From positions 1 through 50,471 of the forward strand of contig JAHFHZ010000004.1 in assembly GCA_023246715.1 (NCBI GenBank): a DNA stretch of 50,471 nt, read 5' to 3'. This DNA comes from Candidatus Magasanikiibacteriota bacterium. GTDB taxonomy: Bacteria > Patescibacteriota > Patescibacteriia > Magasanikbacterales > GWA2-37-8. A program made the translations under genes and the position numbers. The notes under the pieces are model-generated. The model saw only the letters and a list, made by a program, of their open reading frames with translations, searched no databases and was not told the DNA's origin. Positions 4,132 through 50,471 of this stretch are shown piece after piece; the stretch's first letter is position 1; the number at the start of each line of letters is the position of its first letter.

Positions 4132-4218
4132 ACACAATATCTCTATGTTGTTATTATGTTACAACACTATATACATAGTTGTCCACATCATCTAGGATAA
4201 GTTTACAAGGAGGTAGTG

Positions 4219-5417: not shown

Positions 5418-5476
5418 AACAAAAAAGACGCCACCCAGCGTCTTTTTTAATTTTTCTTCTGCTAGAAAAGGTTCGT

Positions 5477-5857: not shown

Positions 5858-5936
5858 ATGGTGATACATTATTAAATAAAACAATAAAATGTAGAGAGGG
5901 GTGCCGGGCTTGTTGCGCCAGGCGGGGGAGTGGGTG

Positions 5937-6680: not shown

Positions 6681-6791
6681 GGCGCACCGTCCTTTCTTGG
6701 AGCTGTATAGCTGTTGTTGCAACGCCATCTTACCCAAAATGTACGATTGCTTTGTAGCAACAGCTGTATTTCTAAAGAACTGTTTAGTAAC

Positions 6792-10577: not shown

Positions 10578-13500
10578 ATGTCAAATTCCCTAAGAAAATC
10601 TTTTTATACAAATTTGGTGTTCGGCGTTCTAGCCAGTTTTTTTGCGGTGGTTACCAGTCTGGCGCTCAGTATGTGGTTATCGGGCTACGTCGACCGCGCG
10701 CTGGCCGCTTCACCACCGACAATCATCAATTACCAAGGGAAATTATTTCAAAATAGTTTAGCAGTCACGACCACGCAGAGCATGAAGCTGTTGTTGTACA
10801 ACGCAGCTACCGCGGGCAACGTGTTGTATACCGCCGGGGGCACCGTGGGTACCCCCACGGCCGTTTCGGTGGAAGTAACCACCGGCACCTTTAGCGTTTC
10901 GCTTGGGGGCAGCGGCACCAACGCCATTTCTGATGTTATTTTTCGGGATAATACCTCGGTTTACCTCGAAGTGACCGTTGGCGCCGAAACCATGAGCCCG
11001 CGCAAACAGATTGTTGCCTCGCCCTACGCCTTTAATTCACGGTACTTGGATGGAGTAGGCTCAAAGACAGTTTCCACCACCACCTACATTCCAATTTCCG
11101 ATGGCTACGGCAATTTCCTGTTCAACCAAGTTACCTCTACCTTCGTTACCTCCACTGGCGGAGCCTATCTAGCGGGCTCCAGCACCCTCGGCACGGCCTA
11201 CATTACCAGCCTCACCGTTGGGAACGGCCTGTTGACCTATTTAGCCAACACCCAGACGTTTACGGGCCTCAACACCTTTAGCGCCGGACTCATTGCTTCC
11301 GCATCTTCCAGTATCGCCTCCTCGCTCAACGTCAGCGGCAACCTCAACGCGTCATCCTCTTTGTTTGTCGGCGGCTTCTCCGCCCTAACTGGCTTCAACT
11401 CCACGGCTTCCTCGACCATCGGCAGCACGCTCAGCGTCACGGGCGCAACCACGGTATCCTCATCGCTTAGTGTCCTTGGCCTCACCAGCCTTACTGGCGG
11501 GTTTCTCTCCACGGCTTCCTCGACGGTGAATGCGGGGTTGAGTGTTTCGGGGGCTCTGAATGCTTCGTCAACTTTTAACGCAAACGGCTTAGCTGTTTTA
11601 ACCAGTGGATTTATCGCCAATGCCTCTTCCTCAATTGGTGGGGCCTTCCTGGTGAGCGGAAGCCTGAATTCTTCATCCACCCTCACTGCCAATAATCTCT
11701 CGATCCTTGGCACCTGTACCGGCTGTGGTGGCGCGACTAACGCAGTGAATACTTGGAGCGCTCTCAACACCTTTACCGCCGGTATTATTGCCAATGCCTC
11801 ATCAAGTATGGATCGTCTCCAGGTGGCTGGAGCCCTAAACGCCTCTGGCACCCTGTTGGTGAATGCCTCATCTTCCTTTTCCAATGGGTTAACGGTCGGC
11901 GTGGTCAGTACTACACCGAGTGCGAAATTCACTATTTATGAAGGCAGTGTTTTGGCTCTGGGCACGCAAGGTGGCGCTGGTGTCACCCCGGCTTCCGGTG
12001 CTGGTACCCGCCTGATGTGGATCCCCAACAAGTCCGCATTTCGCGCTGGCTACGTCAATGATACCCAATGGGACAATGGTAGTATTGGCAGCTACTCTAC
12101 GGCATTCGGTAACAATAACACCGCGAGTGGTGATTACTCTACGGCGGTAGGTTCTGGTAATACCGCGAGCGGCGTCTATTCGTTTGCAGGGGGGGCCGGA
12201 GGAATCGCTTCTGGTGCCGGCTCGTTTTCGGTCGGTGTAAATTCCAATGCTGCGAGTGGTGATTCTTCGGTTGCTTTTGGGAATAATAATACAGCCTCAG
12301 GAGGCTATACCTTCACCGTCGGCAGTGGCAATGTTGCGAATAACACTGGCGGTATTGCCATGGGTAATTCCAATACGGCCGGACTGCAGGCTACTGCAAT
12401 TGGTACGAGCAATGTCGCCAACGGCACGTATTCTATGGCTTTTGGCAGAGCCATGACTGTGAGCGGACACACCTCGATCGGTTTTAATTTGAATGGCGAT
12501 GCCGCTTCGACCCTGGCACAAGCCAATACCATGGCTATTATGAGTGGGAAAGTCGGTATTGGAACCGTAACTCCGGCCTATACGCTGAGTGTCAGTGGCA
12601 CTATTGGTCTCTCCGGTACCTCCACCTATTTTGCCGGTCCAACTACTACGGTTATGGATGGGCAATCTCTCACGATTGGCAAAGGTCCTGGTTTTAACCA
12701 AGGACTATTCTATGTTGATGCTGCCAGCTCAACTAATGGTGGCGCCATCTTTGCTTCGGGGAGTCTGGCAATCGCAGGCACCAGTGGTGGTATTCCACTC
12801 GAAGGAGCCGGGGCAAGATTGATGTGGGTGCCGACTAAGAGAGCCTTCCGCGTAGGAGAAGTGCTCAGCTCTGAATGGGATAATGTTAGTATCGGCAACT
12901 GGTCATTTAGTGCTGGCTACAATAATAGAGCCGTAGGTCAAGCCAGTATGGCTTTGGGGCAGAACGCCTTCGTAGAATCAAGCGCTGCCATCGGAGCTTT
13001 CTCCATTGGGTATAACAATTACACCCAGGACGGCGCGATTGGCGCGATTGGGTATAATGCTACCGCTAAGGGCACCAACTCAATGGCGCTTGGCAACTCC
13101 GTCACTGCCGGCAATGGCAACACCCCCAGTAGCTACACCTTTGGGGATGCCAATAGCGTCGGCGGACAGTACAGCGTGGCTGTAGGAACACAGAATACTG
13201 TTGACGGAGCACAATACGGTATGATTTTTGGCAACAATAGCACGGTCAGCGGACAATATTCTCTGGCGCTTGGCTGGGGTACGTATATTTCCGGGCAACA
13301 TTCTGCTGCTATCAATTTAGGAAATTCTGCAATGACCTTTTTCCAAAATCCACTGGTGTTTAATAATACCATGGCAGTAATCGGCGGTTACATGACCATT
13401 GGAAATGATGCCATAAACCCGGCGGCGCTCACTGGTGCGTCTTCTACTCTGTCTGTCTCTGGCACCTTGGCGATTGGCTCCCCCGGCAATGGCGGTGTAT

Positions 13501-14831
13501 CAGTAAGCTCTACCACCAATACCACCACTTTCAAATCTTATGCAGCCAATGCCGTCGGCGCGGTGGCGTTTGATTTTGATACTAATTTTAGTTTTACGTC
13601 GTCAACAGCCGGTGGCCCAGTGGACCGCGCCTTGGCCACCTTTAGTAACGCGGGCGTACGCAAGCTGATAATTTCGGCGGCTGGCAACGTGTACGCGTCG
13701 AGCAGTTTTATTGCCAACAGCAACTCCTTCGCGCTCGGCGACGTGGCCGAATATGTGAATCTCGCTCCAGGAGTGACGGCCGAAGCGGGCGATGTATTGG
13801 TAGTAGCCGAACAGGGTGCCGTGCAGTTCCGTCCGTCTGGTCAAGCGTACGAGCCTGCTGTTGCCGGAGTAATTTCCGATACCGGGCGGTTTGTAATGGG
13901 CGCCGGTGGCCCGGGCCGAGCCGCGCTCGCGCTGACTGGTTTAGTTTTGGTGAAAGCCAGCACCGAAAATGGCCCGATTAAAGCCGGTGATTACTTGGTT
14001 ACCGGAAGCAAACCAGGCATGGCGATGCGTTACGATATAGCGGCTGGCCGTGGGGGCGGCTTAGTGGGAATGGCGCTTGAGCCGCTGGAGGTTGGTAGCG
14101 GAAAAATTACTATCCTGGTAAACAAAGGTTTATCCGCGGCAACGCCGGCGCAAACCAACACTCTGGGATTAAGCGATACTGGTGGGCAGTTGGCTAAAGC
14201 GGCGGATTTGAACTTGGCCGGGCAGGATATTTTTAACGTAAAATCACTACGCGGTTTGAGCGGGGCTTGGGAACTGACCGCCGAAGGTAAATTAAAAGCA
14301 AAAATAGTCGAAGCCGACCAGGTTGCCGCTGCTGATTTTGTTGTGCGAGTTCCCAAAGACGCTCCGGCAGCGGTTGGGCAGGGTACTGTTGCGGTTGGTC
14401 AGCAGCTCTTGAGCATCAAGAATGAAAAAGTCACTGAACAGGCTAAAATTTTTGTCACCTTCCGTAATAATCCCCAGGCGTTTTGGTGGATTTCCAAGCA
14501 AGAAAAGGGCGCCTTTGAAATTTCGCTAAGCCAAAATGCGGCTGTCGAGAGTAAGTTCGATTATTGGATTATTGGCGTAGCGGTGGACGAAGAAACCGCC
14601 CCTGAAGCAGCTTCGGTTGAGGCACCGATCACCCCGGAACAAACTCAAAATTCAAACAGCGGTAGCAATCAGCCGCCAGCCGCTGCCACCCTACCCGATG
14701 ATACTCCTCTGGTAAGCGCGTCACCCGCCAAGGGTGAAGCGCCTGAGGCCGAGCCACCCACGCCTGATTCAGTGTCACCGGCCGCTCCCGAGCAGAACGA
14801 GGGCTCGTCGGCCCCGGCCACCGCGCCCTAG
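10578..14831 (+). CDS. Giant secreted surface/adhesin protein with ASST repeats, YadA-head-like repeats and C-terminal chaperone-like domain
   Basis: N-terminal TM/signal, INYQGKL..SPYA module, ASS(T/S) repeats, ~14-aa STAFGNNNTASGDY repeats, DVAEY..GVIS..NGPIKAGDYLVT domain, Pro/Glu-rich tail. Confidence 0.8.
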   Translation: MSNSLRKSFYTNLVFGVLASFFAVVTSLALSMWLSGYVDRALAASPPTIINYQGKLFQNSLAVTTTQSMKLLLYNAATAGNVLYTAGGTVGTPTAVSVEVTTGTFSVSLGGSGTNAISDVIFRDNTSVYLEVTVGAETMSPRKQIVASPYAFNSRYLDGVGSKTVSTTTYIPISDGYGNFLFNQVTSTFVTSTGGAYLAGSSTLGTAYITSLTVGNGLLTYLANTQTFTGLNTFSAGLIASASSSIASSLNVSGNLNASSSLFVGGFSALTGFNSTASSTIGSTLSVTGATTVSSSLSVLGLTSLTGGFLSTASSTVNAGLSVSGALNASSTFNANGLAVLTSGFIANASSSIGGAFLVSGSLNSSSTLTANNLSILGTCTGCGGATNAVNTWSALNTFTAGIIANASSSMDRLQVAGALNASGTLLVNASSSFSNGLTVGVVSTTPSAKFTIYEGSVLALGTQGGAGVTPASGAGTRLMWIPNKSAFRAGYVNDTQWDNGSIGSYSTAFGNNNTASGDYSTAVGSGNTASGVYSFAGGAGGIASGAGSFSVGVNSNAASGDSSVAFGNNNTASGGYTFTVGSGNVANNTGGIAMGNSNTAGLQATAIGTSNVANGTYSMAFGRAMTVSGHTSIGFNLNGDAASTLAQANTMAIMSGKVGIGTVTPAYTLSVSGTIGLSGTSTYFAGPTTTVMDGQSLTIGKGPGFNQGLFYVDAASSTNGGAIFASGSLAIAGTSGGIPLEGAGARLMWVPTKRAFRVGEVLSSEWDNVSIGNWSFSAGYNNRAVGQASMALGQNAFVESSAAIGAFSIGYNNYTQDGAIGAIGYNATAKGTNSMALGNSVTAGNGNTPSSYTFGDANSVGGQYSVAVGTQNTVDGAQYGMIFGNNSTVSGQYSLALGWGTYISGQHSAAINLGNSAMTFFQNPLVFNNTMAVIGGYMTIGNDAINPAALTGASSTLSVSGTLAIGSPGNGGVSVSSTTNTTTFKSYAANAVGAVAFDFDTNFSFTSSTAGGPVDRALATFSNAGVRKLIISAAGNVYASSSFIANSNSFALGDVAEYVNLAPGVTAEAGDVLVVAEQGAVQFRPSGQAYEPAVAGVISDTGRFVMGAGGPGRAALALTGLVLVKASTENGPIKAGDYLVTGSKPGMAMRYDIAAGRGGGLVGMALEPLEVGSGKITILVNKGLSAATPAQTNTLGLSDTGGQLAKAADLNLAGQDIFNVKSLRGLSGAWELTAEGKLKAKIVEADQVAAADFVVRVPKDAPAAVGQGTVAVGQQLLSIKNEKVTEQAKIFVTFRNNPQAFWWISKQEKGAFEISLSQNAAVESKFDYWIIGVAVDEETAPEAASVEAPITPEQTQNSNSGSNQPPAAATLPDDTPLVSASPAKGEAPEAEPPTPDSVSPAAPEQNEGSSAPATAP

Positions 14832-19256: not shown

Positions 19257-19345
19257 AATTCGCTACAAACAAAAACCCTTCCCACTGCCGCGTCCTGGAT
19301 GGGGCGGCAATGGAAAGGGTACCAGAGAGAGATTGTGCGGCCCGG

Positions 19346-19789
19346 CTACTGCTCGGTCAGGCAGTTGCCCGAGACCTGTACCAGGTCTCCCGCCTTGAGC
19401 GGGGCGCTGGGATCGATCGCGAGCGCGATGGTCTTTTCGAACGCCGCGCTGGCATCGCTCACGACCTGCTGGCCGGCCTGGCGCAGGTCGCGCTGGCCGA
19501 GGATGCGGAACTTGGCGTCGGGGCCATCGCAGGCCATGCTCTGCTTCTTCGGGGACTCGCTCCCGACGGGAGTGGCGCACTCGAGGTCGTAGTAGACGGT
19601 CCCGAGCACGAACCGCCGCCGCACGCTCACGTGCGGGCCACCACCCTCGCCCTGCTGCACGCGCATCATACAGTTGGCGTAGGGCGGGGTCTCGGGCGCG
19701 GTCGTGTCCGGGCGGACGTCGGTGTGGCAGGCGCCGAGGGCGAGGCTCGCGGCAAGCGCCGCGGAAAACAAGGTCTGGGACTTCCGCAT
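19346..19789 (-). CDS. GC-rich cassette: predicted lipoprotein
   Basis: AGGAG SD; MRKSQTLFSAALAASLALGA|C lipobox; promoter TTGACA-17-TAAAGA (19856-19828). Confidence 0.8.
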   Translation of the reverse strand: MRKSQTLFSAALAASLALGACHTDVRPDTTAPETPPYANCMMRVQQGEGGGPHVSVRRRFVLGTVYYDLECATPVGSESPKKQSMACDGPDAKFRILGQRDLRQAGQQVVSDASAAFEKTIALAIDPSAPLKAGDLVQVSGNCLTEQ

Positions 19790-19909
19790 TGGGATCTCCT
19801 GGTATTTGCACACTGTGTGCGTGAGTGTCTTTACCATAAAAAGCTCAATTTGTCAATAATCTAAGTCTGAATTTTGCCTTGGATTAGTCAGGTTTATGCA
19901 CAAAATACC

Positions 19910-20121
19910 TTGACAAAGGCCCGTTTTTATGCTACAACTAATTAGTTTTGCGAGTCTTTTTAGGAGCGCAAAACCACCGCTCTTTTTATTTGGCAAACAG
20001 AAAAACAAAGTGGGCTTTGTTCCCGAAACCATATTGAGAACAAGATTATTCAATATGGTATCGATCGGTTTGTAACCGTCGATACCTGTGGAGAAAATCG
20101 GTTTTTTAATGGTTTCGGGAA
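19910..20121 (+). ncRNA. Candidate small structured RNA with own promoter
   Basis: TTGACA-17-TACAAC (19910-19938); 13-bp stem 20020-20032/20109-20121 enclosing further hairpins; no ORF. Confidence 0.35.
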
Positions 20122-20191
20122 GTCTGGCTCTTGCAAAAGAGCGGAGCTATCCCTAGGTAGTGCAGTTGCTCCATGTCTCAAGGAGGCCCAG

Positions 20192-20728
20192 ATGAAGCGC
20201 TCCAGCGATCCCTCTGCCACCACCACCCCGGCTTCGCAGTACGACGACCGCGACCCGGCCTTTGACGATGGCGGGGTCTTCGGCCTCGGGCACCGCCCGC
20301 CGCGTTTGATGATCGGGGCGATCCTGCCCCACGAGTCCTCGCCGACCTGCCCGCGGGAGCCGCCCCGGCCCGCCCGCCCCCGGGCGACTCCGCCCGCGGC
20401 CCTGCCCCGCCCAGCCTTCTCTGGCCTTGCCGGGTTGCTCTTCAGCGGGCCCGCCGCTCCCGCCCGGCCTCGGCAGGATGCCCGCCCCCCGCTGTCGGCG
20501 CCCGCCCGCCCCACCGTCTTTCCGGGAGGAACCGCTCCCGGGCAGTCCCTGGCCGCCCCGGGCGACAACGAGCCCTCGACCGATCTGCCGCGTCTCCCGG
20601 CCCCGGTCCGGCAGCTCCCGCCCACCGAGTGGGCGTTGAGCTGGCCCGAGCGAGTGCTCATCCTGGCCGCGGTCGTGGTCGTGCTCGGCTTCGTCGGATC
20701 GATCATCTACGCGGCCTTCGTCCCCTAG
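20192..20728 (+). CDS. GC-rich cassette: Pro-rich protein with C-terminal TM anchor
   Basis: AAGGAGG SD; promoter TTGCAA-17-TAGGTA (20131-20159); C-terminal VLILAAVVVVLGFVGSIIYAAFV. Confidence 0.72.
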   Translation: MKRSSDPSATTTPASQYDDRDPAFDDGGVFGLGHRPPRLMIGAILPHESSPTCPREPPRPARPRATPPAALPRPAFSGLAGLLFSGPAAPARPRQDARPPLSAPARPTVFPGGTAPGQSLAAPGDNEPSTDLPRLPAPVRQLPPTEWALSWPERVLILAAVVVVLGFVGSIIYAAFVP

Positions 20729-38653: not shown

Positions 38654-38923
38654 AGAAGAGCGCACGGGGGAACTAAAACCTTAAAACCGGCTATTAAAGC
38701 TGTTTTTTGTTTTATTCAATTGTTTTACTCAATACTATTGACAAATTGCCAAAAATGTGCTAAGATAAGCGGTTGTTCTTTACATTTTGGCTTACTACGG
38801 CCCTGAAAACGGCCTGAAATACGCACGATTTACCTTTGAATATCAACCTCAAGGGTGAATCGTGCGTATTTGGTCGCCGGTTGAGAAGCCGGCCAGGAAT
38901 TGGTGCTTTCAAGGAGGTCTTTG

Positions 38924-39514
38924 ATGCCACAGACAAGCAGCCCCACTCCGAACGACTCGTTCCAGCAGTGCAACGGCAAGTGGCCCGGCGGCAAGCGCTG
39001 CACCAGGCAGCAGGAGCGGCTCCACTGCCCCGAGCACCTCGAGCAGATCCTGCTCGCGGCTCGCTTCGCCAACGAGGAGGACATTTCCCCCGGGGAGATG
39101 TTCTGGTATCGGTACAGCGTGAGCGGGCCCCGGATCTGGTTCCTCACATGTGAGGACCGGATCGAATTCGCCGACCCCCCGGCGCTGCCCGCCGGCTGCG
39201 GCCCCAACGACCGCGCCGCCGCCGAGCAGAGCGCCCTCGAGCGTCCGCGCCAGATCAATCGCGCCGCCCCGCCCCAGCGGCCCCGGCGCGACGATCAGCG
39301 CCCCGCCCGCGAGCGCCTGCAGCAGCCCCACCCCGTGCAGATGCCGGATCGGCCATTCCGGCCGCTCGTGCACCGCCTGGCGGCTGAGCCGAGCACCCCC
39401 GAGCAGCGCTTCGCGCAGCCGGTCACGACCACCATACGTAGCCCCCGCTACGCCGTGTTCGCCCCGACGCTCGCTCGCCGCCACGGCGGCCCCAAGGGCA
39501 ACAACGACCGGTAG
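38924..39514 (+). CDS. GC-rich cassette between secY and adk: putative Zn-finger (QCxG..RC..CxxH) plus Arg/Pro-rich tail
   Basis: Promoter TTGACA-17-TAAGAT (38738-38766); AAGGAGGT SD; 39181-39240 has 50/60 G+C. Confidence 0.72.
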   Translation: MPQTSSPTPNDSFQQCNGKWPGGKRCTRQQERLHCPEHLEQILLAARFANEEDISPGEMFWYRYSVSGPRIWFLTCEDRIEFADPPALPAGCGPNDRAAAEQSALERPRQINRAAPPQRPRRDDQRPARERLQQPHPVQMPDRPFRPLVHRLAAEPSTPEQRFAQPVTTTIRSPRYAVFAPTLARRHGGPKGNNDR

Positions 39515-39708
39515 CCCCGCTTTCGGCAGCCAACGCCCCTCACGCCCACCCCGCGGCTCCCCAAAGCCGCGCTCCAAATAGCAATTTCTTTCTAAATTAA
39601 AGAGGAATTTCTTCTGGGGCAGAGGTCGTTAATCCGCTTAAAAATCATTCCAAACGGAGTGATTTTTTTGCTTGTCAAAGCAGGCGATTTTTGATAGCCT
39701 GAAACAGT

Positions 39709-42379: not shown

Positions 42380-42444
42380 ATTTGTGGAGTTCGCTGCGTA
42401 ATGTTATGCTGATTTTTTAGGGTAGTTCAATTATTGTGCCACGT

Positions 42445-43737
42445 ATGAACGTATCTATTTCGGAGTTTAAAGATTATGTCGGGCAAGCAGTTACTGTTTC
42501 CGGCTGGTTATACAACAAACGCTCGTCCGGACCGATCGCTTTTTTGGAGCTGCGCGACGGCAGTGGTTGGACGCAGGCCGTGGCCGTGCAAAAGTCCCTA
42601 TCACCCGAAGTGTGGTCCGCGGTGGAGCAGGTAACGCAGGAATCGTCGGTAGTGGTCACCGGCACGATTTCTAAGCATCCCAAAAAAGAAAATATTTTTG
42701 AGCTACAGGTTGCTGATCTGCGCATTTTGCAGCTAGCCACCGAATACCCGATCGCCAAAAAAGATCATGGCCCGGATTTTCTGATGGATAATCGCCACCT
42801 CTGGCTACGCAGCCGCAAGCAGTGGGCAATTCTGCGTTTGCGCGACTCGATCATCATGGCGATTAACATATATTTGCACCAGGAGCGGTTTATTAAAATT
42901 GACTCCCCGATTTTTACGCCCAACGCCTGCGAAGGCACCACCACGTTGTTCTCGGTACCGTATTTTGATTTAGGAACCGCTTACTTGTCTCAATCTGGTC
43001 AATTATATATCGAAGCGGCTATTGCCTCGGTAGGGCGTTGTTACGATTTTGGCCCTGTCTTTCGCGCGGAAAAAAGTAAAACCAAACGCCACTTGACTGA
43101 ATTTTGGATGATGGACGCCGAAGCAGCTTTTGTGGAGCATGCCGGCAACCTGGCACTGCAGGAAGGCCTAGTGCGTTTTATCGTGCGCTATTGCCTGGAA
43201 CATTGTCTGGAAGAATTAACGATTCTGGAGCGAGATGTTGAAAAATTAAAATTGGCCGATAATCCGTTTACCCGCTACGGCTACGACGAAGCGATTAAAA
43301 AATTAAATGAACTTGGTTCGGATATTAAGTACGGCGAAGATCTGGGCAATGATGATGAAGGACTCTTGACCAAAGACAGCACCGTGCCGGTGTTTATCGA
43401 AAAGTGGCCCAAAGGCATCAAACCGTTTTACATGAAGCGTGATCCGAACAATCCCGAATTGGTTTTGAATGATGACTTAATCGCCACCGACGGTGGAGGA
43501 GAATTAATCGGCGGCAGCCAGCGCGAGGAAAATGTTGATTTGCTGATCGCCCGGATGAAAGACGAAGGGTTAAATCAGGCGGACTATGAATGGTATTTGG
43601 ATACCCGTCGGTTTGGCAGCGTGCCGCATTCCGGATTTGGTATCGGGCTTGAGCGCACCGTGCGTTGGATCGCTGGGGTGGAGCATATTCGGGAATGTAT
43701 CCCGTTCCCGCGCACGATCGGGCGCTTGCGGCCGTAA
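42445..43737 (+). CDS. asnS: Asparagine--tRNA ligase
   Basis: FLELRDGSG, YLSQSGQLY, FRAEKSKTKRHLTEF, PHSGFGIGLER. Confidence 0.95.
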   Translation: MNVSISEFKDYVGQAVTVSGWLYNKRSSGPIAFLELRDGSGWTQAVAVQKSLSPEVWSAVEQVTQESSVVVTGTISKHPKKENIFELQVADLRILQLATEYPIAKKDHGPDFLMDNRHLWLRSRKQWAILRLRDSIIMAINIYLHQERFIKIDSPIFTPNACEGTTTLFSVPYFDLGTAYLSQSGQLYIEAAIASVGRCYDFGPVFRAEKSKTKRHLTEFWMMDAEAAFVEHAGNLALQEGLVRFIVRYCLEHCLEELTILERDVEKLKLADNPFTRYGYDEAIKKLNELGSDIKYGEDLGNDDEGLLTKDSTVPVFIEKWPKGIKPFYMKRDPNNPELVLNDDLIATDGGGELIGGSQREENVDLLIARMKDEGLNQADYEWYLDTRRFGSVPHSGFGIGLERTVRWIAGVEHIRECIPFPRTIGRLRP

Positions 43738-44002
43738 CAAAATTTCTTAACATCACTCTGCTAAGAGTGGTGTTTTTTTGATTTTCTTTAAGCTTCTTAA
43801 CTAAATGTAGGCACCCTTTTGGTGCCAAAATGGTGCCGCCTAAAAGCACCGAGCGGTTCTCGCTTGGTATGACCCGGATTCTTCGCAACGCTCCTCATCA
43901 TTTCGTGTCATATCCTCGCTCGACAAATGCTCGGGAATTTTTGGTGAAATCGTTTTGTTACAAAAGGTATTCCGCCGCAGTCATTCAGCTTATTTCAAAA
44001 CT

Positions 44003-44092
44003 GTCATGCCCACCCCCACTTTTGTGAGGGTAAACTCCAGTGGGAATCCAGGTTTGGCTTACCGACTGGATTCCCGCCTGCGCGGGAATGAC
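44003..44092. repeat. dRS3/REP-like palindromic repeat
   Basis: GGGAATCCAG..CTGGATTCCC and ATTCCC-N8-GGGAAT (44070-44089). Confidence 0.75.
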
Positions 44093-44207
44093 CCGACTTA
44101 ATTTTAAACATGACTTCATTGACACTTTTCTGCTTTCCTGCTAAGCAACCAGGTAACTTGGACGCAAAATGACACTGGGTCATTTTGTTCCCCAAGAAGG
44201 AGGCCCC

Positions 44208-44750
44208 ATGTCCAGAACGCCTGCTCTGTATTGTGCCTTCGCCTGCCTGCTGGCTGTGCCCGCTTGCGTCGCCCCTGGCTTCGTCGGCATCGAGCGTGCT
44301 GCGGCCGCGCAGGCCCAGAGTGAGCCGCGGCTCACCAGCTACCTGCCCGGTATCGATCTGATTGGCACCCCGGCGGCTCAGCGGCCGCTGCCGATGGTCG
44401 AGGAGGTGGTGGAGACCGTGCCCGATGAGGCGATCGGCGGCATGAACCACCGCGAGCGCCTGGTGCTTCGGGGCCGTTGCGAGACCATCCTCGGCGCGGG
44501 CGGCCAGCGCTTCTTCATCGTCATCAGCCACGACGGCTCTCCCGAGGTCCGGCCACACTGGAACATCATGTGCGCCGACGGTTACGTCCGGGTCTCGTGC
44601 CCGCCGGGCCAGCAGAGCAGCCTCATGAGCCTGCCCGAAGAGCAGGCCACGCGCCGCTGCGCCAACTTCGAGAACTGGCACTTTATCTTGCCCACCGAGG
44701 GCGAGATCGATTCCGATGGCATCTTCCAGCTCGTCCACGCCTGCCGCTGA
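44208..44750 (+). CDS. GC-rich cassette: secreted Cys-containing protein / possible lipoprotein
   Basis: Promoter TTGACA-17-TAAGCA (44119-44147); AAGGAGG SD; hydrophobic N-terminus LLAVPA|C. Confidence 0.75.
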   Translation: MSRTPALYCAFACLLAVPACVAPGFVGIERAAAAQAQSEPRLTSYLPGIDLIGTPAAQRPLPMVEEVVETVPDEAIGGMNHRERLVLRGRCETILGAGGQRFFIVISHDGSPEVRPHWNIMCADGYVRVSCPPGQQSSLMSLPEEQATRRCANFENWHFILPTEGEIDSDGIFQLVHACR

Positions 44751-44902
44751 GCCAGGCATGCAAACAATATCCCGCCCGGGCGCTCGTCGCTGCCACCGAG
44801 CACGAGCGCCTCCCGATCATTAATTTTATCGCTGAATAAAGCGATTTTTTTGTTTTATACGGCATTTTTACCCACATATATCCACTTGGCGCATACCTAG
44901 TC

Positions 44903-44970
44903 TGCCATCCCCGTGAAAACGGGGATCCAGTACTGTGTGTGGGCTGGATTCCCGCTGGCGCGGGAATGAC
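44903..44970. repeat. dRS3/REP-like palindromic repeat
   Basis: ATCCCC-N8-GGGGAT (44907-44926) and ATTCCC-N8-GGGAAT (44948-44967). Confidence 0.75.
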
Positions 44971-45116
44971 AATGTGTGATTAGGCGTGGACTACGTACAT
45001 ATATTTTTATCCCCAGTCCGAGAGCGGCCCAATCATTGACAAAGCTCTATTTTTATGTAAGGGTAGAGCCAAGTCGCGTCAATGCGGCGAACCCCAACGT
45101 TAGAGGAGGTCTCCTA

Positions 45117-46202
45117 ATGCGATCCAGATCGTCTCCCCCCAGCCATCTGCTGTCCGCCGCCTTCGGGCTCCTGGCCCTGCTGGCCGCGCCCGGCCTGGCC
45201 GAGGCCAAGCAGATCTTCGTCGGGCCTTACCACGACGTGAGCAGGGCAGTCGTGGACAAGCCGCTCACGGCCAAGGAGAAGCTCGCCAAGTGCGCCAGCG
45301 ACAGCGCCTTCACTCTCGATGACTGCCAGCGGATGTTCCTTGTGCCGTCCGCAGCCACCACGAAGCAAGATGTGGATCTGCAGAAGGCCAAGACCCGAGA
45401 GGAGTCCGCCCGCGCGGCCCAGCTGAAGGCGGCCACCAAGGGCGGGGCCCAGAAGATCGAGGTGAACAACAACGCCACGTCTAACTCCGGCGGGAACAGA
45501 ATTCAGGCGACCTCGATCACCGAGGCAGTCCTGGGCCGCCGCGTCATCGCCTGGACCAACCTCCCGCGCTACGGCATGGGCCTCTTCGTTCCGGTGCGCT
45601 TCGAGCTCCGCAACGACGGGAACGACGCCCGCCAGGAGGCGATCGCAGTCGGCGTGGGCGTCGAGGCCCACGGCGGCATCTTCAGTGTGATGGAGAGGAG
45701 CGTCGTGTTCGCGTGGTATGGCGAGTTTGCCTGGCTGCGCGGCTCCCAGCTTACGGTCTCGGCGTTCGACGCCGCGACCTCCACGGTCAGCAGAATCACG
45801 GGCGGCACGAAGGCCGACCACCTCACCGTCTCCTTCGGTCTGGATCTGCTCGCCGGCAAGCTCGTCGGCGCCAAGCTGGGCTACGTCTACGACTACCGCG
45901 CCTCCTCTGTCGATGGCCCCGACGAGAACCTGCGCGGCATCCCCTCGACCGGGTCTCACGGAATGCGTGCGGCCCTGCGGATCGTTCCGTTCGGTTGGGG
46001 GCACCAGATATCCTTCGATCTATTCAACTGGAAGGAGACCTTCTACCCCACCAACCCCGACAACCCCGCCTACATCAACTACCAGGCGACCCCGGAGCAG
46101 CCCGCGATGAAGGCGACGGCCGTGCTCCCGAACGGGCCGCTCGTGACCACGAACTTTTTCAAGGTCATGATGACCTACCGACAGGACTTCAACTTCCTGT
46201 AG
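45117..46202 (+). CDS. GC-rich cassette: signal-peptide protein with probable C-terminal outer-membrane beta-barrel
   Basis: GAGGAGGT SD; signal peptide ending GLAEA|K; alternating amphipathic strands; terminal TYRQDFNFL. Confidence 0.7.
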   Translation: MRSRSSPPSHLLSAAFGLLALLAAPGLAEAKQIFVGPYHDVSRAVVDKPLTAKEKLAKCASDSAFTLDDCQRMFLVPSAATTKQDVDLQKAKTREESARAAQLKAATKGGAQKIEVNNNATSNSGGNRIQATSITEAVLGRRVIAWTNLPRYGMGLFVPVRFELRNDGNDARQEAIAVGVGVEAHGGIFSVMERSVVFAWYGEFAWLRGSQLTVSAFDAATSTVSRITGGTKADHLTVSFGLDLLAGKLVGAKLGYVYDYRASSVDGPDENLRGIPSTGSHGMRAALRIVPFGWGHQISFDLFNWKETFYPTNPDNPAYINYQATPEQPAMKATAVLPNGPLVTTNFFKVMMTYRQDFNFL

Positions 46203-46437
46203 GCCCCACCCCCCGCCGTCCCCTCGACCCCCTCCGCAGCCCATGGCTCGCGAGCGGCTCCAGGCACGGCACTTCTCCCAAATGTCTAAATCAAGCCAAA
46301 CTGGTTTGGAAAGTTGGGAAAACGCAAAACCGCTCTCGCCCGAGGCGGTTTTTATTTTTTTAAAAACTTCCTTAGTCGTGTACAAACCCTTGCTTTTTTT
46401 AAATCCCTGTGGTAGGTAAGTAATCAAAGGAGGCTCA

Positions 46438-47082
46438 ATGAAAAAAGATTACGATCGTCGCAAAGTTCTTGGCCTGCTTGGTAAGCTCACTGCGGCCCTT
46501 TGTCTGGCACCATTAACCGGCTGCTCTATCTTCCGTGGGGGCCAAGACGATTCATTAACCGGCGGTGGTTACCTAGACACCAAGACCGGCTGGGTGCGTC
46601 TGCCCGACGGGACTTTCACCGACGACGGTGACGTGTATCGTCAGGCGGTCAAACAGTTGAAGGAGAACCACCAGGTGCCCGCTGGCGGGCATTGCCCGAC
46701 ACCCGCCGTGCTCGGTAGCACCTCGGGAAACTTCGCCAACTTCCCCTGGGACGCGTCCTTCTGCAACGGCCTGTGCCCCGTTTGCGGGAAAGCTCCACTC
46801 ATTCAGCTCCGGAGCGAGTACTTCCCGCTCGGCGAAGATGGCGACGGACAGTCGCCGCCGATGTACAAGACCTATGGAGCATGTGCGGACCCCAGCTGTT
46901 TAAGTGGCGGCCAGGAGCAGTATCTGCCGGGCTCCAAGCGCCCCGCGCCCGCGCCGCGCACCATAAACGTGGATGGCGCGTTCGTGTACCCGCTCCCGGC
47001 CGGGGGCTGGTTCATGCCGCGGCTGCCCATGCCGGCTGGAATCCGGTTCGTCATTCCGCTCCGGCCCGTCTTCGTGCCGTAG
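46438..47082 (+). CDS. GC-rich cassette: Tat-type lipoprotein, Zn-ribbon family paralog 1
   Basis: AAAGGAGG SD; DRRKVL..LTG|C; CPVC..C; VYPLPAGGWFMPRLP. Confidence 0.8.
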   Translation: MKKDYDRRKVLGLLGKLTAALCLAPLTGCSIFRGGQDDSLTGGGYLDTKTGWVRLPDGTFTDDGDVYRQAVKQLKENHQVPAGGHCPTPAVLGSTSGNFANFPWDASFCNGLCPVCGKAPLIQLRSEYFPLGEDGDGQSPPMYKTYGACADPSCLSGGQEQYLPGSKRPAPAPRTINVDGAFVYPLPAGGWFMPRLPMPAGIRFVIPLRPVFVP

Positions 47083-47134
47083 CACCCGGTTCAGCCTTCC
47101 ACCACCAACCGCCGACCTCACCAGTCGGCCTTAG

Positions 47135-47170
47135 AACCCTGTTTTAAAAATTTTTAAAACAGGGTTTTTA
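47135..47170. terminator. AT-rich palindromic terminator
   Basis: AACCCTGTTTTAAAAA/TTTTTAAAACAGGGTT perfect palindrome plus T-run. Confidence 0.65.
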
Positions 47171-47260
47171 TTTTAACTAGTTGACCAAAGTAGCCGGGCG
47201 TGTTAAGACCGGAGCAGATTAACGGGGCAATCAAGCCCCGCATAGTAGGAAGGCCAGACC

Positions 47261-47857
47261 ATGTGCACTCGGCAGAGCGTTCTTTGTTCCCCCTTCATTC
47301 TCCTGGTCGTTTTTGCCAGCAGCTGTGTCCGCTTGTTCGGCGGCGAACAGGGAGACACGGGCGAGACTAAAATAACCGCGCCCTATGTCGAACCCAAAGC
47401 CGCCTGGGTTTGGGATGGACAGGAGTACCGTGAAGCGTCTCGCTCCGAGATCAACGATGCCATCGACAAGATGGCGCATGATCAGCACGGCCACGGCCGT
47501 ACGTTCGCCGCTCCGCTCGGGAGCGTGAGCGGCATCCCGGTTGTTGACCTGGTCTGCCCGTCGTGCGGCGAGGGGAAGCTCTCGCTCAACCTGATCTCGG
47601 AGTACTATCCCTTTGGGAGTGATCCCAAAAATGGCAATGGCCCGCCTGTTTACCGGACCTACGGAACGTGCGACAAGTGCGGCCACAGCCATTACATCAA
47701 GGGAACCGAGCGCCCGGCCCCCCCGCTCCAGAGTGAGCGCGTGGGTGGAACGATCGTCTACCCGCTACCAGCCGGGGGCTGGTTCATGCCGCGGCTGCCC
47801 GCTGGCTTTCGCCTGCCGGGTTTGCGCCCGGTTATTCCCGAGTTCGCCCTGCCCTAG
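47261..47857 (+). CDS. GC-rich cassette: lipoprotein, Zn-ribbon family paralog 2
   Basis: Promoter TTGACC-17-TAAGAC (47181-47209); FASS|C; CPSC..CDKC; VYPLPAGGWFMPRLP. Confidence 0.8.
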   Translation: MCTRQSVLCSPFILLVVFASSCVRLFGGEQGDTGETKITAPYVEPKAAWVWDGQEYREASRSEINDAIDKMAHDQHGHGRTFAAPLGSVSGIPVVDLVCPSCGEGKLSLNLISEYYPFGSDPKNGNGPPVYRTYGTCDKCGHSHYIKGTERPAPPLQSERVGGTIVYPLPAGGWFMPRLPAGFRLPGLRPVIPEFALP

Positions 47858-47979
47858 TTCTTTGGTACGTCACCAGGCGTTCCCGCTCGTATTGACGCAA
47901 TTCGTCGAACGTGCTAGGAATAGTCAGTCTCTCACAGGGCTCCTTTCGGGAGCCTTGTATCATTCCCAAGGAGATGTCC

Positions 47980-48636
47980 ATGTGTAACCGACGCAACCTG
48001 CTCCAAGCAATCGGCCTGCTGCCTTTTGCGCCCCTTGTCTCGGGGTGTCAGCAACTCTTCGGCGAGGGCGCGGCAGATCGCGGGCCCAACTCCCCGCCCG
48101 CCCCCTATGTCGACCGCAAGTTCGGCTGGGTGTGGGACGGCCAGGTCTACCGTGAAGCGTCGGCCAAAGAGATCGATGAGTTCATCGAGCAGATGACGCA
48201 AGAACAGTTCGGCCACGGCCGGCTGTTCATGGCCACCGGCAGCGTCGCTGCCGACCCGATCAAGCTGCCCGACGGCACCTGGCAGCTCCCGGGCACGCTC
48301 ACCGGCGTCCCGTGTCCCATCCCGGACTGTGACGGAACCTTGGTCGACATCAATCAGCGCCAATACTATCCCTTCGGGCGCGATAGCGACGGTGACGACG
48401 ACGGCTCGTCGGCCGTCAACGTCAGATTCGGCCAGTGCAACAGGTGCCTCTCCAGACGGGCGCTCCCCGAGCGCTTCGATGAGAAGGCCGAGCCGCTCAA
48501 GAGCCAACGCGTGAACGGCGCAGTCGTCTACCCACTGCCCGCGCCAATTGGCGGCTGGCTGTTGCCGCGTCTGCCGGCCGGTATGCGCCTGCCCACGCTC
48601 GGCCGCATTCCCATACCGCGGTTCGCCGTTCCCTAG
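47980..48636 (+). CDS. GC-rich cassette: Tat-type lipoprotein, Zn-ribbon family paralog 3
   Basis: Promoter TTGACG-17-TAGGAA (47892-47920); AAGGAG SD; NRRNLL..VSG|C; CPIPDC..CNRC; VYPLPAPIGGWLLPRLP. Confidence 0.8.
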   Translation: MCNRRNLLQAIGLLPFAPLVSGCQQLFGEGAADRGPNSPPAPYVDRKFGWVWDGQVYREASAKEIDEFIEQMTQEQFGHGRLFMATGSVAADPIKLPDGTWQLPGTLTGVPCPIPDCDGTLVDINQRQYYPFGRDSDGDDDGSSAVNVRFGQCNRCLSRRALPERFDEKAEPLKSQRVNGAVVYPLPAPIGGWLLPRLPAGMRLPTLGRIPIPRFAVP

Positions 48637-48759
48637 GCTACCGCGCAGCTCCGCCGCCTGCTGACCTGTCAGCACCTCGGCCCCTTTCCCGAATTGCTCA
48701 ACAAAATTATGAGCAAATCGGGAAAGGGCAACGAAATCAACGCCCTGTGAGGAGGTCCC

Positions 48760-49500
48760 ATGCGCGTCCGTTCCTTGCCTCTCAACCTCGTGCTGCTCGC
48801 CCTTGCGGTCGGCACGCTGCCCGGTTGCAGCTTCATCGACAGACTCGGCCGCGAGATGACCGCCCGCGGCAATCAGGTGAGCCAGCTCTACCAGAAATGC
48901 CAAGAAAAAGTGGAGGGCGCCTGCGATGCCTGGATCCAGTGTTCACAAAGCGGCGTTGACGACTGCCGCAAGCTCGCCTCGGTTCAGCCGATCCTTGGCA
49001 GTCCGCCCGCGGTGAGCGGCCTTTTGCGCTTCGGCAGGGGAGGCGGCGCGGCGGGTGGCAACAACGGCGACGAGTGTGATCCGCCCGGCGAACGCGAGTG
49101 CTCGGCCAGCCCCGACGGCCGCCACCACTTCGTGGGGAAGATCCCCCCCACGTATCGGTTCTTCGTGAAGAAGGACAACACCTGCTGGCGTCAAGCGCTC
49201 GAGGACTGCGAGTACTGCCACACCACCTACATCGGCAACGCTAGCGAGGAGCAGATCACCTTCCCGCAGATCACCTCTGCGGTGGGGCAGGCTGCGGCTG
49301 CCAAGGAAGCCCTCGCCAAAGCGGCCGGAGGGATGCCTGCGCAGGCGCTCCTTGAGCTCCTCGCCGCCGGTAACAAGGCCGGTTTCGAGGCCAAGATCGC
49401 CGAGAGCTACTGGAGCCACATTTTTGAGGCTCAAGACAACGCCGAGACCTCGGCTGACCGCCACGGCCTCACGCCTTGCGTCAAGCACGTCAGCGACTAG
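48760..49500 (+). CDS. GC-rich cassette: Cys-rich lipoprotein with CxxCH motif
   Basis: GAGGAGGT SD; LALAVGTLPG|C; CEYCH. Confidence 0.78.
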   Translation: MRVRSLPLNLVLLALAVGTLPGCSFIDRLGREMTARGNQVSQLYQKCQEKVEGACDAWIQCSQSGVDDCRKLASVQPILGSPPAVSGLLRFGRGGGAAGGNNGDECDPPGERECSASPDGRHHFVGKIPPTYRFFVKKDNTCWRQALEDCEYCHTTYIGNASEEQITFPQITSAVGQAAAAKEALAKAAGGMPAQALLELLAAGNKAGFEAKIAESYWSHIFEAQDNAETSADRHGLTPCVKHVSD

Positions 49501-49667
49501 GCCATCTCAGTCAATCTTGACAAATTGCTCATAGACCCCTACAACGAGGAGCTTTGTCCGACCTGCGGGCCAGGCTCCCTCGCCATATGCCCTTTACAAC
49601 ACCATCCCAAAGTAATCCAAGCGCTGAAAATCTTCAGCTCTAAGACAACTTTGGGAAGGAGGCCACC

Positions 49668-50027
49668 ATGCGTATCGCTGCCAAGCGCACCTTGATTGGT
49701 GTTGCGATCATTCTGGGCCTTGTCGCTTGCGCCTGGGCCGCTCTGAAGAAGCCTGCCGCTGCGCTCCCCACCGAGGTGCGCTGGAGTGATGTGACCCTGC
49801 CACCCTCCACCACCACCTGCGCCAAATACAGGCTGTGGGAGGTTCCGCCCGTGGACCAGGCCGAGCAAGCCGCTGACCCGCGCACGGCCGAGAACCGCTT
49901 CTTTCAGCGCGGTTGCGATGCCCGCCGCGTCACAGATGCTCGAGGCCATCGGGTGTTTCGGCTGCCGGGCGACCCGCTCATCTGCTGCACCAAGAATCCG
50001 GCCCTGGCTGCCGGCCCCAACCCCTAA
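49668..50027 (+). CDS. GC-rich cassette: small exported/membrane-anchored Cys protein
   Basis: Promoter TTGACA-17-TACAAC (49517-49545); AAGGAGG SD; N-terminal hydrophobic segment. Confidence 0.72.
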   Translation: MRIAAKRTLIGVAIILGLVACAWAALKKPAAALPTEVRWSDVTLPPSTTTCAKYRLWEVPPVDQAEQAADPRTAENRFFQRGCDARRVTDARGHRVFRLPGDPLICCTKNPALAAGPNP

Positions 50028-50057
50028 CCCCTGCCGACCTCTCGCGTCGGCCCCATC

Positions 50058-50091
50058 AAAAACCACTCAACAAATTGTTGAGTGGTTTTTT
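50058..50091. terminator. Bidirectional intrinsic terminator
   Basis: AAAAACCACTCAACA..TGTTGAGTGGTTTTTT. Confidence 0.75.
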
Positions 50092-50102
50092 AGTCGCCAA
50101 GC

Positions 50103-50327
50103 TTATATTTTTGAAAAACGTTGTTGCGTGATCCCATTATATTCCACCATTCCAAAAAACTCTGTTTTGGGCCTGATGAAAATAACATCTTCTCCAAATT
50201 CTGGTATAGCGTAAAGTGGTTTATAAAGCACCCACTCTTCTACCGTTTCGTGATGTCTGGCCAGGCCCGTTACTTGGTAGGTTTTTCCGCTATAATGGCG
50301 ATACACGCCAAGCAGTGATTGGTCCAT
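50103..50327 (-). CDS. DUF1653 family protein
   Basis: GVYRHYSGKTYQV..ARHHET.E..VLYKPLY..FIRP..EF..V..QRF. Confidence 0.88.
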   Translation of the reverse strand: MDQSLLGVYRHYSGKTYQVTGLARHHETVEEWVLYKPLYAIPEFGEDVIFIRPKTEFFGMVEYNGITQQRFSKI

Positions 50328-50382
50328 AAAAAGCATCTTATTAAAGATAACAGAATCCGTTAGGATTCTGTATATCACATCG

Positions 50383-50466
50383 TGCGCGAAGAGAGAATCG
50401 AACTCTCATGGCCTTGCGGCCGCGGGATTTTGAGTCCCGTGCGTCTACCAGTTCCGCCATCCGGGC
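50383..50466 (-). tRNA. tRNA-Leu(CAA), CCA not encoded
   Basis: GCCCGGA-TGGCGGAACTGGTAGACGC, anticodon arm CGGGA-CTCAAAA-TCCCG, long variable arm, GAGAG-TTCGATT-CTCTC. Confidence 0.93.
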
Positions 50467-50471
50467 AGTTA

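Follow-up and report, generated by a model that had tools for sequence, protein, structure and literature searches.

Three diverged genes for a rare family of predicted lipoproteins in a GC-rich island of a Candidatus Magasanikiibacteriota genome

Lipoproteins processed by Lgt and signal peptidase II (SPII) present a charged N-terminus, a hydrophobic stretch, a lipobox cysteine and a tether. RcsF is a small lipoprotein whose Pro-rich disordered segment is threaded through an outer-membrane barrel. The zinc ribbons of TFIIS, Rpb9, NrdR and the N-terminal part of MqsA belong to cytoplasmic proteins with nucleic-acid or regulatory roles. Other exported proteins end in LPXTG/sortase, PEP-CTERM or GlyGly-CTERM signals, which combine a Pro-containing motif with a membrane span and a basic end. 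Finally, tRNA-linked genomic islands are deviant accessory blocks beside a tRNA gene, in intervals that vary among relatives. Here, we describe three neighboring genes (positions 46438-48636, + strand) that share some features with each of these systems. They lie on contig JAHFHZ010000004.1 of Candidatus Magasanikiibacteriota bacterium (GCA_023246715.1). The window, that is, the whole stretch of DNA analyzed (50,471 nucleotides), is this entire 50.5-kb contig of a 1.06-Mb genome (G000), with 49% GC. We refer to the three genes as copies 1, 2 and 3.

Our leading, still tentative reading is that the three proteins are SPII-processed surface lipoproteins. They would come from a mobile pool of envelope genes, rich in GC at third codon positions (GC3), of one bacterial family of the Candidate Phyla Radiation (CPR) type. 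Their role probably lies at cell-surface contacts. Each protein would be exported by Sec, lipidated by Lgt at the lipobox cysteine, cut by LspA and anchored to the outside of a single membrane. A flexible linker of about 20 residues would follow the lipid anchor. It would lead to a compact domain of about 120 residues, predicted as a beta-hairpin, a helix and a four-cysteine, two-knuckle, zinc-ribbon-like sheet held by metal or by two disulfides. The protein would end in a disordered, hydrophobic Pro/Arg tail of 30-40 residues with the motif (V/I)YPLPxGGWxxPRLPxxxRLP. This tail would be an extended arm reaching through the wall to a partner or surface, and not a sorting signal. The genes would be accessory cargo of the GC3-rich pool, moving among slots and genomes of one family of single-membrane cells with genomes of about 1 Mb. 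This cargo would probably serve contact with a host or a competitor.

Copy 1 (46438..47082, +) encodes 214 residues. It shows RR at positions 7-8 of the signal, the lipobox LTGC (Cys29) and six further cysteines, and its Pro-rich tail ends in VFVP before the stop codon TAG. Copy 2 (47261..47857, +) encodes 198 residues, with the lipobox ASSC (Cys22), the Cys pairs CPSC (99-102) and CDKC (137-140), and the tail VYPLPAGGWFMPRLPAGFRLPGLRPVIPEFALP followed by TAG. Copy 3 (47980..48636, +) encodes 218 residues, with the lipobox VSGC (Cys23), the pairs CPIPDC and CNRC, and a tail ending in FAVP before TAG. The longest open reading frame (ORF) of copy 3 begins at a GTG (47911) and spans 47911-48636. 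Nevertheless, the ATG at 47980 is the most likely start, because the Shine-Dalgarno sequence AAGGAG (47968-47973, +), read directly, sits 6 nt upstream, and because the protein then begins like copy 2 and the relative P0006, with MC(T/N)R.

The BLASTP comparisons give E 3e-26 (40% identity) for copies 1-2, E 9e-9 (31%) for copies 1-3 and E 7e-42 (41%) for copies 2-3. The three window proteins are clearly homologous, and their reading frames are intact. When all three are aligned, 50 columns are invariant, and 20 of these lie within the last 45 residues of copy 1. All the copies present the lipobox cysteine and the blocks Y..K..WV, DG..YR.A, (E/Q)Y(Y/F)P(F/L)G and VYPLPA..GGW..PRLP, and all three genes end in a Pro codon and TAG. 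An initial annotation of this DNA had described a three-copy family with shared blocks. The alignment and BLASTP agree with this description, and every block that it named is seen. Likewise, the two Cys pairs per copy that it reported are present. A CxxC spacing throughout is not: two of the six pairs are Cx4C, namely the first pair of copy 3 (CPIPDC) and the second of copy 1 (CADPSC).

We compared 16 members of the family: the three from the window, two from genome G011, one from genome G458 and ten metagenomic. In all 16, a cysteine aligns behind a hydrophobic stretch. It stands at residue 17-29, after a positively charged N-terminus and the hydrophobic stretch, and a low-complexity tether comes next. 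A loose lipobox pattern is passed by 14 of the 16 members and a strict, PS51257-like pattern by 11; copy 1 misses the latter solely by the Pro at -4. The genome encodes Lgt (PF01790, 150.2 bits, C24:5496-6209) and LspA (PF01252, 74.9 bits, C4:20483-20875), both above cut-off. The lipoprotein nature proposed at first is thus backed by the aligned cysteine and by these two genes. The members carry a predicted lipoprotein signal that fits SPII processing, and they would be lipidated at this cysteine. They resemble classical Lgt/SPII lipoproteins in their charged N-terminus, hydrophobic stretch, lipobox cysteine and tether, and differ from them in the mature part, which corresponds to no known lipoprotein family.

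The n-regions show another feature. An RR pair is present among the first 15 residues in 11 of the 16 members, including copies 1 and 3; copy 2 has RQ instead. In the 92.8%-complete genome, TatA/TatC of the twin-arginine translocation (Tat) system (PF00902, PF02416) were searched for without any match at E 0.01; the controls matched in 11 of 14 genomes. The RR pair in a genome where Tat was not found may be either mere positive charge or the trace of another cellular background. Omp85 and OMP_b-brl were not found in G000, nor was ribosomal protein L30. One sortase gene is present, on another contig and unlinked to the island. This combination (Lgt, LspA and sortase present; Omp85, Tat and L30 not found) fits a single-membrane cell of the CPR type.

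The middle part of the proteins was studied with an AlphaFold2 model of copy 2, built on 13 sequences. Its mean predicted local distance difference test (pLDDT) value is 64.5. Residues 61-160 mostly reach pLDDT 75-92 and form a beta-hairpin, one helix and a sheet with the Cys pairs at turns. More precisely, pairs 99/102 and 137/140 adjoin strands 106-116, 130-137 and 143-145. The signal, the linker and the last ~28 residues are unconfident, with tail pLDDT below 50. The two Cys pairs stand about 35 residues apart and are present in all 16 members. In the 13-sequence alignment, three of the Cys columns are invariant and the fourth is kept in 12 of 13. One subfamily presents an extra Cys pair in its N-block, as would be expected for a location outside the cytoplasm.

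The family searches gave no match above cut-off in Pfam for the three proteins. Under the cut-offs, copy 2 shows zf-ChsH2, ADK_lid and Zn_ribbon_3 (E 0.03-0.12). NCBIfam, PHROGs and PADLOC had no match for the three paralogs or for the other four proteins of the island around them. The 13-member profile found nothing better than E 0.5 among the PDB sequences. At the level of structure, Foldseek against PDB and BFVD gave no match at E 1e-3, and an exhaustive VIA search of 48,161 chains reached a best Z of 3.9. The ESM Atlas offered nothing usable for copy 2 (best feature score 0.79; structure TM at most 0.28). The weak structural rows include TFIIS, Rpb9, NrdR, ZPR1 and MqsA (Foldseek E 0.5-1.5; VIA Z 3.1-3.5 for NrdR). 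They agree with a zinc-ribbon-like arrangement, and membership is not demonstrated by them.

The resemblance to the known zinc ribbons consists of the Cys pairs placed at beta-hairpin turns in the model. On the other hand, no match is significant, the pairs are partly Cx4C, disulfides are possible, and the domain stands behind a lipoprotein signal whereas the known members are cytoplasmic. The core cysteines may bind metal or form two disulfides. The initial annotation had spoken of an unrecognised Zn-ribbon family and had suggested structure prediction followed by Foldseek. The family is indeed absent from the collections above, and the modeled core was usable and had no significant fold match. 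What stands of the zinc ribbon is a four-Cys core of similar appearance, in the Cys columns and in the model; a significant match to a known family does not accompany it.

Two blocks are conserved best, the tail and the DG..YREA block. The last 35 residues are hydrophobic and contain 5-10 Pro, no Lys and 0-4 Arg. The final residue is Pro in 13 of the 16 members, and the net charge is +2 to +4. The last ~12 residues are only 33-58% identical. The strong C-terminal conservation claimed at first is therefore true of the block, and not of its very end. We built a tail hidden Markov model (HMM) from eight tails and ran it, with filters off, against all the six-frame ORFs of at least 60 residues in the genome. 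It recovered the three paralogs only (E 4e-18 to 1e-13), and the next best had E 0.59. Paired (R/Q)(L/M/F)P motifs were also sought across the genome, and no further C-terminus resembling the tail came up.

The tail has no Pro-free hydrophobic run, no helix-compatible hydrophobic stretch and no basic end. It shares with the LPXTG/sortase, PEP-CTERM and GlyGly-CTERM signals a conserved C-terminal segment with a Pro motif on exported proteins, in a genome with a sortase. It differs from them in that it lacks the membrane span and the basic end, occurs in one family only, and has the sortase gene unlinked. The tail appears to be a family-specific element, since the HMM is confined to the paralogs and the layout of a sorting signal is missing. 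From its composition, its conservation and its unpredicted structure, we infer an extended arm or docking motif. The tail DNA of copies 1 and 2 presents a 61-nt stretch that is 89% identical, including 20 identical nt, and its number of synonymous substitutions per site (dS) is 0.72, compared with 1.66 overall. A short gene conversion explains this low value as well as selection does.

The only near case in this motif scan lies elsewhere in the window. A GC-rich ORF (19964-20725, +; coding strand uncertain) has PRLPAPVRQLPP ahead of a hydrophobic segment. The patch, which recalls the tail motif there, lies between a UvrD-like helicase gene and rpsL, and its ORFs overlap across the two strands. 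The helicase-rpsL slot of G458 contains a GC-rich patch as well, without detectable homology.

We made a maximum-likelihood tree of the 16 members and estimated substitution rates to investigate the age of the copies. Copy 1 groups with the G458 member, P0007 and P0031 (support 91/90), copy 3 groups with P0004-P0006 (93/96), and copy 2 stands apart. Likewise, the two G011 copies fall in different clades. The placement of the copies in different subfamilies suggests that their split predates these lineages. By the Nei-Gojobori method, dS between copies is 1.2-1.7, which is saturated. The non-synonymous value (dN) is 0.5-0.66, and it is lowest in the tail (0.29-0.46). The resulting dN/dS of ~0.35-0.4 is unreliable, and it does not suggest decay. 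The comparisons indicate that the three genes are old, diverged copies and not recent duplicates; the picture of tandem paralogs arisen as local duplicates does not agree with the tree or with the saturated dS.

The copies differ in base composition from their surroundings in the three genomes. GC3 is 0.73-0.82 in the window copies compared with 0.57, 0.69 in the G458 copy compared with ~0.45, and 0.43-0.49 in the G011 copies compared with 0.34. The dN/dS and synonymous-GC check proposed at first confirms divergence with a GC-rich style kept. The long residence under selection deduced from it is doubtful, given that GC3 remains at 0.73-0.82 against 0.54-0.63 in the backbone despite saturated dS. 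High GC3 and saturated dS fit copies that had already diverged when they were imported, or a force that maintains the GC3 level.

The family is rare. A profile search of 1.84 billion representative proteins gave 25 matches at E 1e-3 or better: the three window proteins, ten full-length relatives (162-255 residues) and 12 long proteins. The long proteins match the N-terminal part of the profile only (positions ~23-104), in 4-8 stretches each, and nine of the ten checked carry FG-GAP_2 (PF14312). PF14312 had no match to the three window proteins at E up to 1. We treat this likeness as a motif-level resemblance, which is unexplained. Single FG-GAP_2 blades are matched by the Y..K..WVWDGQVYREAS block of the family profile, and some matches go beyond the block. 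The clusters of the relatives contain 1-6 members, all of them metagenomic. They are mostly named 'hypothetical protein' or nameless, and none comes from a named cultured organism; cluster P0013/P0031 has the automatic name 'DUF1610 Zn-ribbon'.

Whole-genome searches with the 13-sequence profile found the family in three of 100 genomes of the same GTDB family and in three of 240 of the order. In a sample of the class, one of 401 genomes has it, and this is the window's own. All three carriers (G000, G011 and G458) belong to one family of ~1-Mb genomes, and the family was not seen in any other genome searched. A tblastn search with copy 3 against phage and plasmid collections gave no match. The pattern scans gave nothing with alignment A3 in 185,579 species genomes, and nothing with alignments A3 or A4 in metagenome and viral contigs; their sole locus, L007, came from the P0037 pattern. 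The word-index searches are insensitive: A2 retrieved five proteins, and genes 2 and 6 of the island retrieved themselves, despite G458 homologs at 27-38% identity. Three matches of a three-sequence profile elsewhere (E ~0.003, 16 bits) were taken as chance, and the same profile missed G011. The HMM search recommended at first has therefore been run, with ~10 true relatives as its result. Neither a characterised family nor a donor genome was found, and these were the two elements that the initial annotation had set against its own proposal. Among the papers listed for surface lipoproteins and host attachment in Patescibacteria, no title or beginning of an abstract dealt with the family, and no paper was retrieved for lipoproteins of Magasanikbacteria.

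The three genes form part of an island of ~6 kb (~44000-50050), with GC 54-68% and seven + strand genes with export signals. Its GC3 is 0.73-0.89, compared with 0.54-0.63 in eight housekeeping genes of the window, and the composition jumps sharply at ~44000 and 50050. Gene 1 (44208..44750, +; ATG 44208; 180 residues) has an exported or lipobox-like N-terminus, GC3 0.83 and no family match. Gene 2 (45117..46202, +; 361 residues) has a type I signal and a strand-rich C-terminal half. The three paralogs are genes 3-5 (46438-48636, +). Gene 6 (48760..49500, +; 246 residues) encodes a Cys-rich lipoprotein (LPGC), and gene 7 (49668..50027, +; 119 residues) an exported protein with a lipobox-like LVAC and GC3 0.75-0.76. 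On the left, the island is flanked by a class II aminoacyl-tRNA synthetase gene (42436..43737, +; Pfam tRNA-synt_2 and OB anticodon domain; GC3 0.57), which we call AsnS-like from its 433-residue length only. On the right, a low-GC DUF1653 gene (50103-50378, -) separates the island from tRNA-Leu(CAA) (50382..50466, -). Rfam recognised only this tRNA in 43500-50471.

The interval between the synthetase gene and the tRNA varies among relatives. We examined 18 loci of the bacterial family, namely 16 fetched relatives, the window and L007. In 16 of the 18, the synthetase gene has tRNA-Leu(CAA) downstream of it, at a distance of ~50 bp to 13.4 kb. Four of the long gaps have cargo richer in GC than the synthetase gene: 0.60 and 0.50 in the window, 0.46 and 0.40 in L007 (G011), 0.56 and 0.48 in L021 (G458), 0.57 and 0.47 in L022 (G006). 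The fifth long gap, L027, has no GC enrichment. In G011, two copies of the family lie directly 3' of the gene for a synthetase that is 74% identical to that of the window. In G458, a homolog of gene 2 (31% identity, E 1e-36) adjoins the synthetase gene, and next come genes for an array of lipoproteins to which gene 6 is related (E 3e-16 and 4e-10). The single family copy of G458 lies in another place, between fusA and tuf, with GC3 0.69 compared with ~0.45 around it. The G006 slot encodes eight proteins that are exported and contain Pro-rich segments. The interval is a hot spot, where related genomes gather genes for secreted proteins.

L007 (CAYUTM010000004.1) carries the label 'uncultured Gammaproteobacteria bacterium'. 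This label looks wrong because the synthetase is 74% identical to that of the window, both loci show the gene order Map - RuvX-like - RecO - synthetase - tRNA-Leu, and the genome is ~1 Mb. In L022, a signal-bearing, Pro-rich protein of 326 residues (5176-6153, -) ends in an LHH nuclease toxin domain (PF14411, E 2e-14, above cut-off). The other seven exported proteins of L022 have shared C-terminal modules, hydrophobic segments and Pro-rich ends of the RLP type. An hhalign comparison of A2 with one G006 island protein gave CPxC...PxG...GxC in register over 48 columns (pairwise E 0.018, probability 2.6%), and with a second one 8 columns (E 0.06). Neither was accepted as homology.

The island resembles tRNA-linked genomic islands: it is a deviant accessory block beside a tRNA, in an interval variable among relatives. 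It differs from them in several aspects. No integrase was recognised among the island ORFs (six ORFs in Pfam; seven in NCBIfam, PHROGs and PADLOC), and no direct repeat of at least 14 nt involving the tRNA end was found. In addition, a native low-GC gene intervenes, and the family also occupies a non-tRNA slot (fusA-tuf in G458).

The paralogs, with gene 2 nearby, recall in part an RcsF-type arrangement. In the ESM Atlas, the clusters closest to gene 2 belong to families of outer-membrane barrels (feature score 0.93; structure rows DUF2490, Autotransporter and OMP_b-brl), which is a lead only. Its AlphaFold2 model, made on two sequences, is too poor for a fold search (pLDDT 43.9). Gene 2 is present in two of 100 family genomes, with its homolog in G458 only, and both genomes also hold the lipoprotein family. 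The window proteins are similar to RcsF as small lipoproteins with four cysteines and a Pro-rich disordered segment, with a barrel-like gene nearby. However, RcsF is absent from the fold-search results, its disordered segment is N-terminal, and no Omp85 was detected in the genome. Co-folding of residues 120-361 of gene 2 and residues 40-198 of copy 2 scored 0.00; it had no controls and gives no evidence either way.

Each copy had been credited with its own promoter and Shine-Dalgarno sequence. The latter are read directly in the three cases: AAAGGAGG (46426..46433, +) for copy 1, AGGAAGG (47247-47253, +) for copy 2, and that of copy 3 given above. The promoters are only plausible. A sigma-70 consensus scan found no promoter upstream of any of the three paralogs. 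A possible promoter of copy 1, TTGCTT (46390-46395) with TAGGTA (46413-46418) on the + strand, was seen by eye and missed by the scan. Possible promoters of copy 2 (TTGACC-N17-TAAGAC, 47181-47209, +) and copy 3 (TTGACG-N17-TAGGAA, 47892-47920, +) share the form TTGAC(C/G)-N17-TA(A/G)G; two such sites were found compared with 0.17 expected, and 2 of 100 shuffles reach two. One RNA run from the same sample matched at the tRNA end only and has no bearing on expression.

The 3' flanks contain hairpins. Downstream of copy 1 lie the hairpin GCCGACCTCACCAGTCGGC (47111-47129, +) and a palindrome like an intrinsic terminator (47133-47168, +). At the right end of the island, after gene 7, lie a second GCCGACCTC..GTCGGC hairpin (50033-50051, +) and a terminator-like palindrome (50058-50090, +). 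G000 has no GCCGACCTC..GTCGGC hairpin other than those that follow copy 1 and gene 7. The G458 homolog also has it 3' (L031 8654-8671), in a flank that mixes elements of both window hairpin flanks. This combination suggests that the 3' flank of copy 1 received copies 2-3 and genes 6-7 by insertion, or was duplicated together with them. Terminator-like hairpins also follow the synthetase gene, gene 1 and gene 2, as well as copy 1, and the intergenic DNA of the island is AT-richer than its genes. A 25-nt hairpin repeat, GGATTCCCGC-N5-GCGGGAATGAC, is present twice in island intergenic DNA (44068..44092, +, and 44946-44970). The genome has 34 copies of it, often as inverted pairs ~20-30 nt apart. 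In the Logan contigs of two groundwater runs, the bin with this repeat has a summed depth >1000, which suggests that the element is common in that groundwater community.

Several observations weigh against surface lipoproteins of a mobile pool. There is no homolog or fold that bears a function (VIA Z at most 3.9; no Foldseek match at 1e-3; PDB E 0.5). The dN/dS figures rest on saturated dS, and the modeled tail is simply unconfident, so that the 'extended arm' is a reading of composition. Three genomic contexts were read, and those of P0004-P0010 and P0014 are not among them. Furthermore, the RR n-regions look Tat-like in a genome where TatA/TatC were not detected, and gene 2 looks barrel-like where Omp85 was not found. 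Both features could mean that the cargo was shaped in another cell type. In that case, the genes would be passengers from a GC-rich, double-membrane, Tat-bearing donor, recently imported and with little or changed function. The GC3 of 0.73-0.89 beside a backbone of 0.54-0.63 and the barrel families near gene 2, as leads, agree with this scenario. We consider it unlikely, as no donor was found and the three readable contexts all belong to one family with ~1-Mb genomes. Plasmids, phages and the scans of species genomes gave nothing, and none of the ~10 relatives among 1.84 billion representatives is named from a cultured organism. The frames are intact, old paralogs have been kept, and terminators of the host type stand between the genes, as does the repeat of the host itself. 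An assembly chimera or binning error has a very small probability. It would account for the sharp composition change at both edges, and the Logan unitigs break at the hairpin repeats, with no listed piece spanning either edge by >31 nt per side. Nevertheless, low-GC native DNA lies on both sides in one contig, two of the 34 hairpin repeats are inside the island, and homologous cargo occupies the same slot in related genomes. In Logan contigs, the depth of flank and island is low and alike (7.0 and 6.5 in X1; 2.8 and 2.3-4.9 in X2; two runs of one study). An artefact is thus unlikely.

Two further explanations concern what the proteins do. They could be conflict cargo, that is, extracytoplasmic immunity or protective proteins, or effector partners, kept as a diverged array in a conflict hot spot. 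The LHH nuclease toxin protein in the same slot of G006, the seven exported proteins beside it with shared C-terminal modules, and the old diverged paralog arrays in two genomes point in this direction. However, the island of the window has no recognised toxin domain or PADLOC match, and the single G458 copy sits away from any such array. In polymorphic toxin systems, an LHH nuclease would require a cytoplasmic immunity protein, not a lipoprotein. We judge this explanation rather improbable. The tail, for its part, had been proposed as a sorting signal or a released bioactive peptide. It could serve a dedicated sorting or anchoring machine, or be cut off and act alone, for example, as a proline-rich antimicrobial-like peptide. 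Its place among the best-conserved blocks, the final Pro of 13 members and the low divergence between copies 1 and 2 (the 20-nt identity, the 61-nt stretch and the lower tail dS) favor such a role, and PRLP and RLP motifs recall proline-rich peptides. The results do not support it: the tail HMM is limited to three ORFs of the genome, the hydrophobic helix and basic end of the LPXTG or CTERM type are missing, and the sole sortase gene is on another contig. None of the island ORFs was recognised as a protease or as an enzyme for processing or modification, the charge is only +2 to +4, and gene conversion explains the low tail dS equally well. We regard both forms, signal and peptide, as improbable. 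The surface lipoproteins of a mobile GC3-rich pool remain our tentative choice.

The surface proteins of ultra-small episymbionts are mostly unannotated, and how these cells recognize and hold other cells is largely unknown. The family is a defined candidate for such contacts: exported and lipid-anchored by prediction, compact, and with a conserved linear tail. It also belongs to a wider pattern, in which GC3-rich genes for lipoproteins and other exported proteins occupy variable slots among the housekeeping genes. The pattern includes a barrel-like protein in a genome without detected assembly machinery and a secreted nuclease toxin in a relative. In G000, GC-rich DNA forms 61 segments, most of them gene-sized (57.9 kb in total, ~5% of the genome), and 55 ORFs have a GC3 of at least 0.72. 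Examples are C44:3501-9900 and C39:21601-23800, and 4216-4842, 5937-6737, 19263-20728 and 38900-39577 in the window. We used a crude rule on the longest ORFs that do not overlap. By this rule, lipobox-like N-termini are present in 8 of 35 GC3-rich ORFs compared with 15 of 926 ordinary ones, a ~14-fold enrichment; ORF choice in GC-rich DNA is error-prone, and the enrichment rests on this rule. Any signal-like N-terminus, by the same rule, is present in 19 of 35 and 196 of 926, respectively.

A more speculative possibility, to which we give little weight, is that the trio belongs to a larger, as yet undescribed phenomenon in a single-membrane cell without detected BamA or Tat. The GC3-rich cassettes would then be a mobile stock of envelope proteins held in common, acquired from a GC-rich double-membrane host or directed at one, with the conserved Pro/Arg tails docking onto or inserting into the host envelope. 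If the pool is derived from a host or directed at one, its sequences would give a hold on the identity of partners for uncultured lineages. If not, the trio would be an ordinary rare accessory family. Finally, the window contains another large surface-type gene: a 1417-residue ORF (10578-14831) with YadA_head repeats of the adhesin type (PF05658, E 9e-16), which adjoins a 763-residue tetratricopeptide repeat (TPR) protein.

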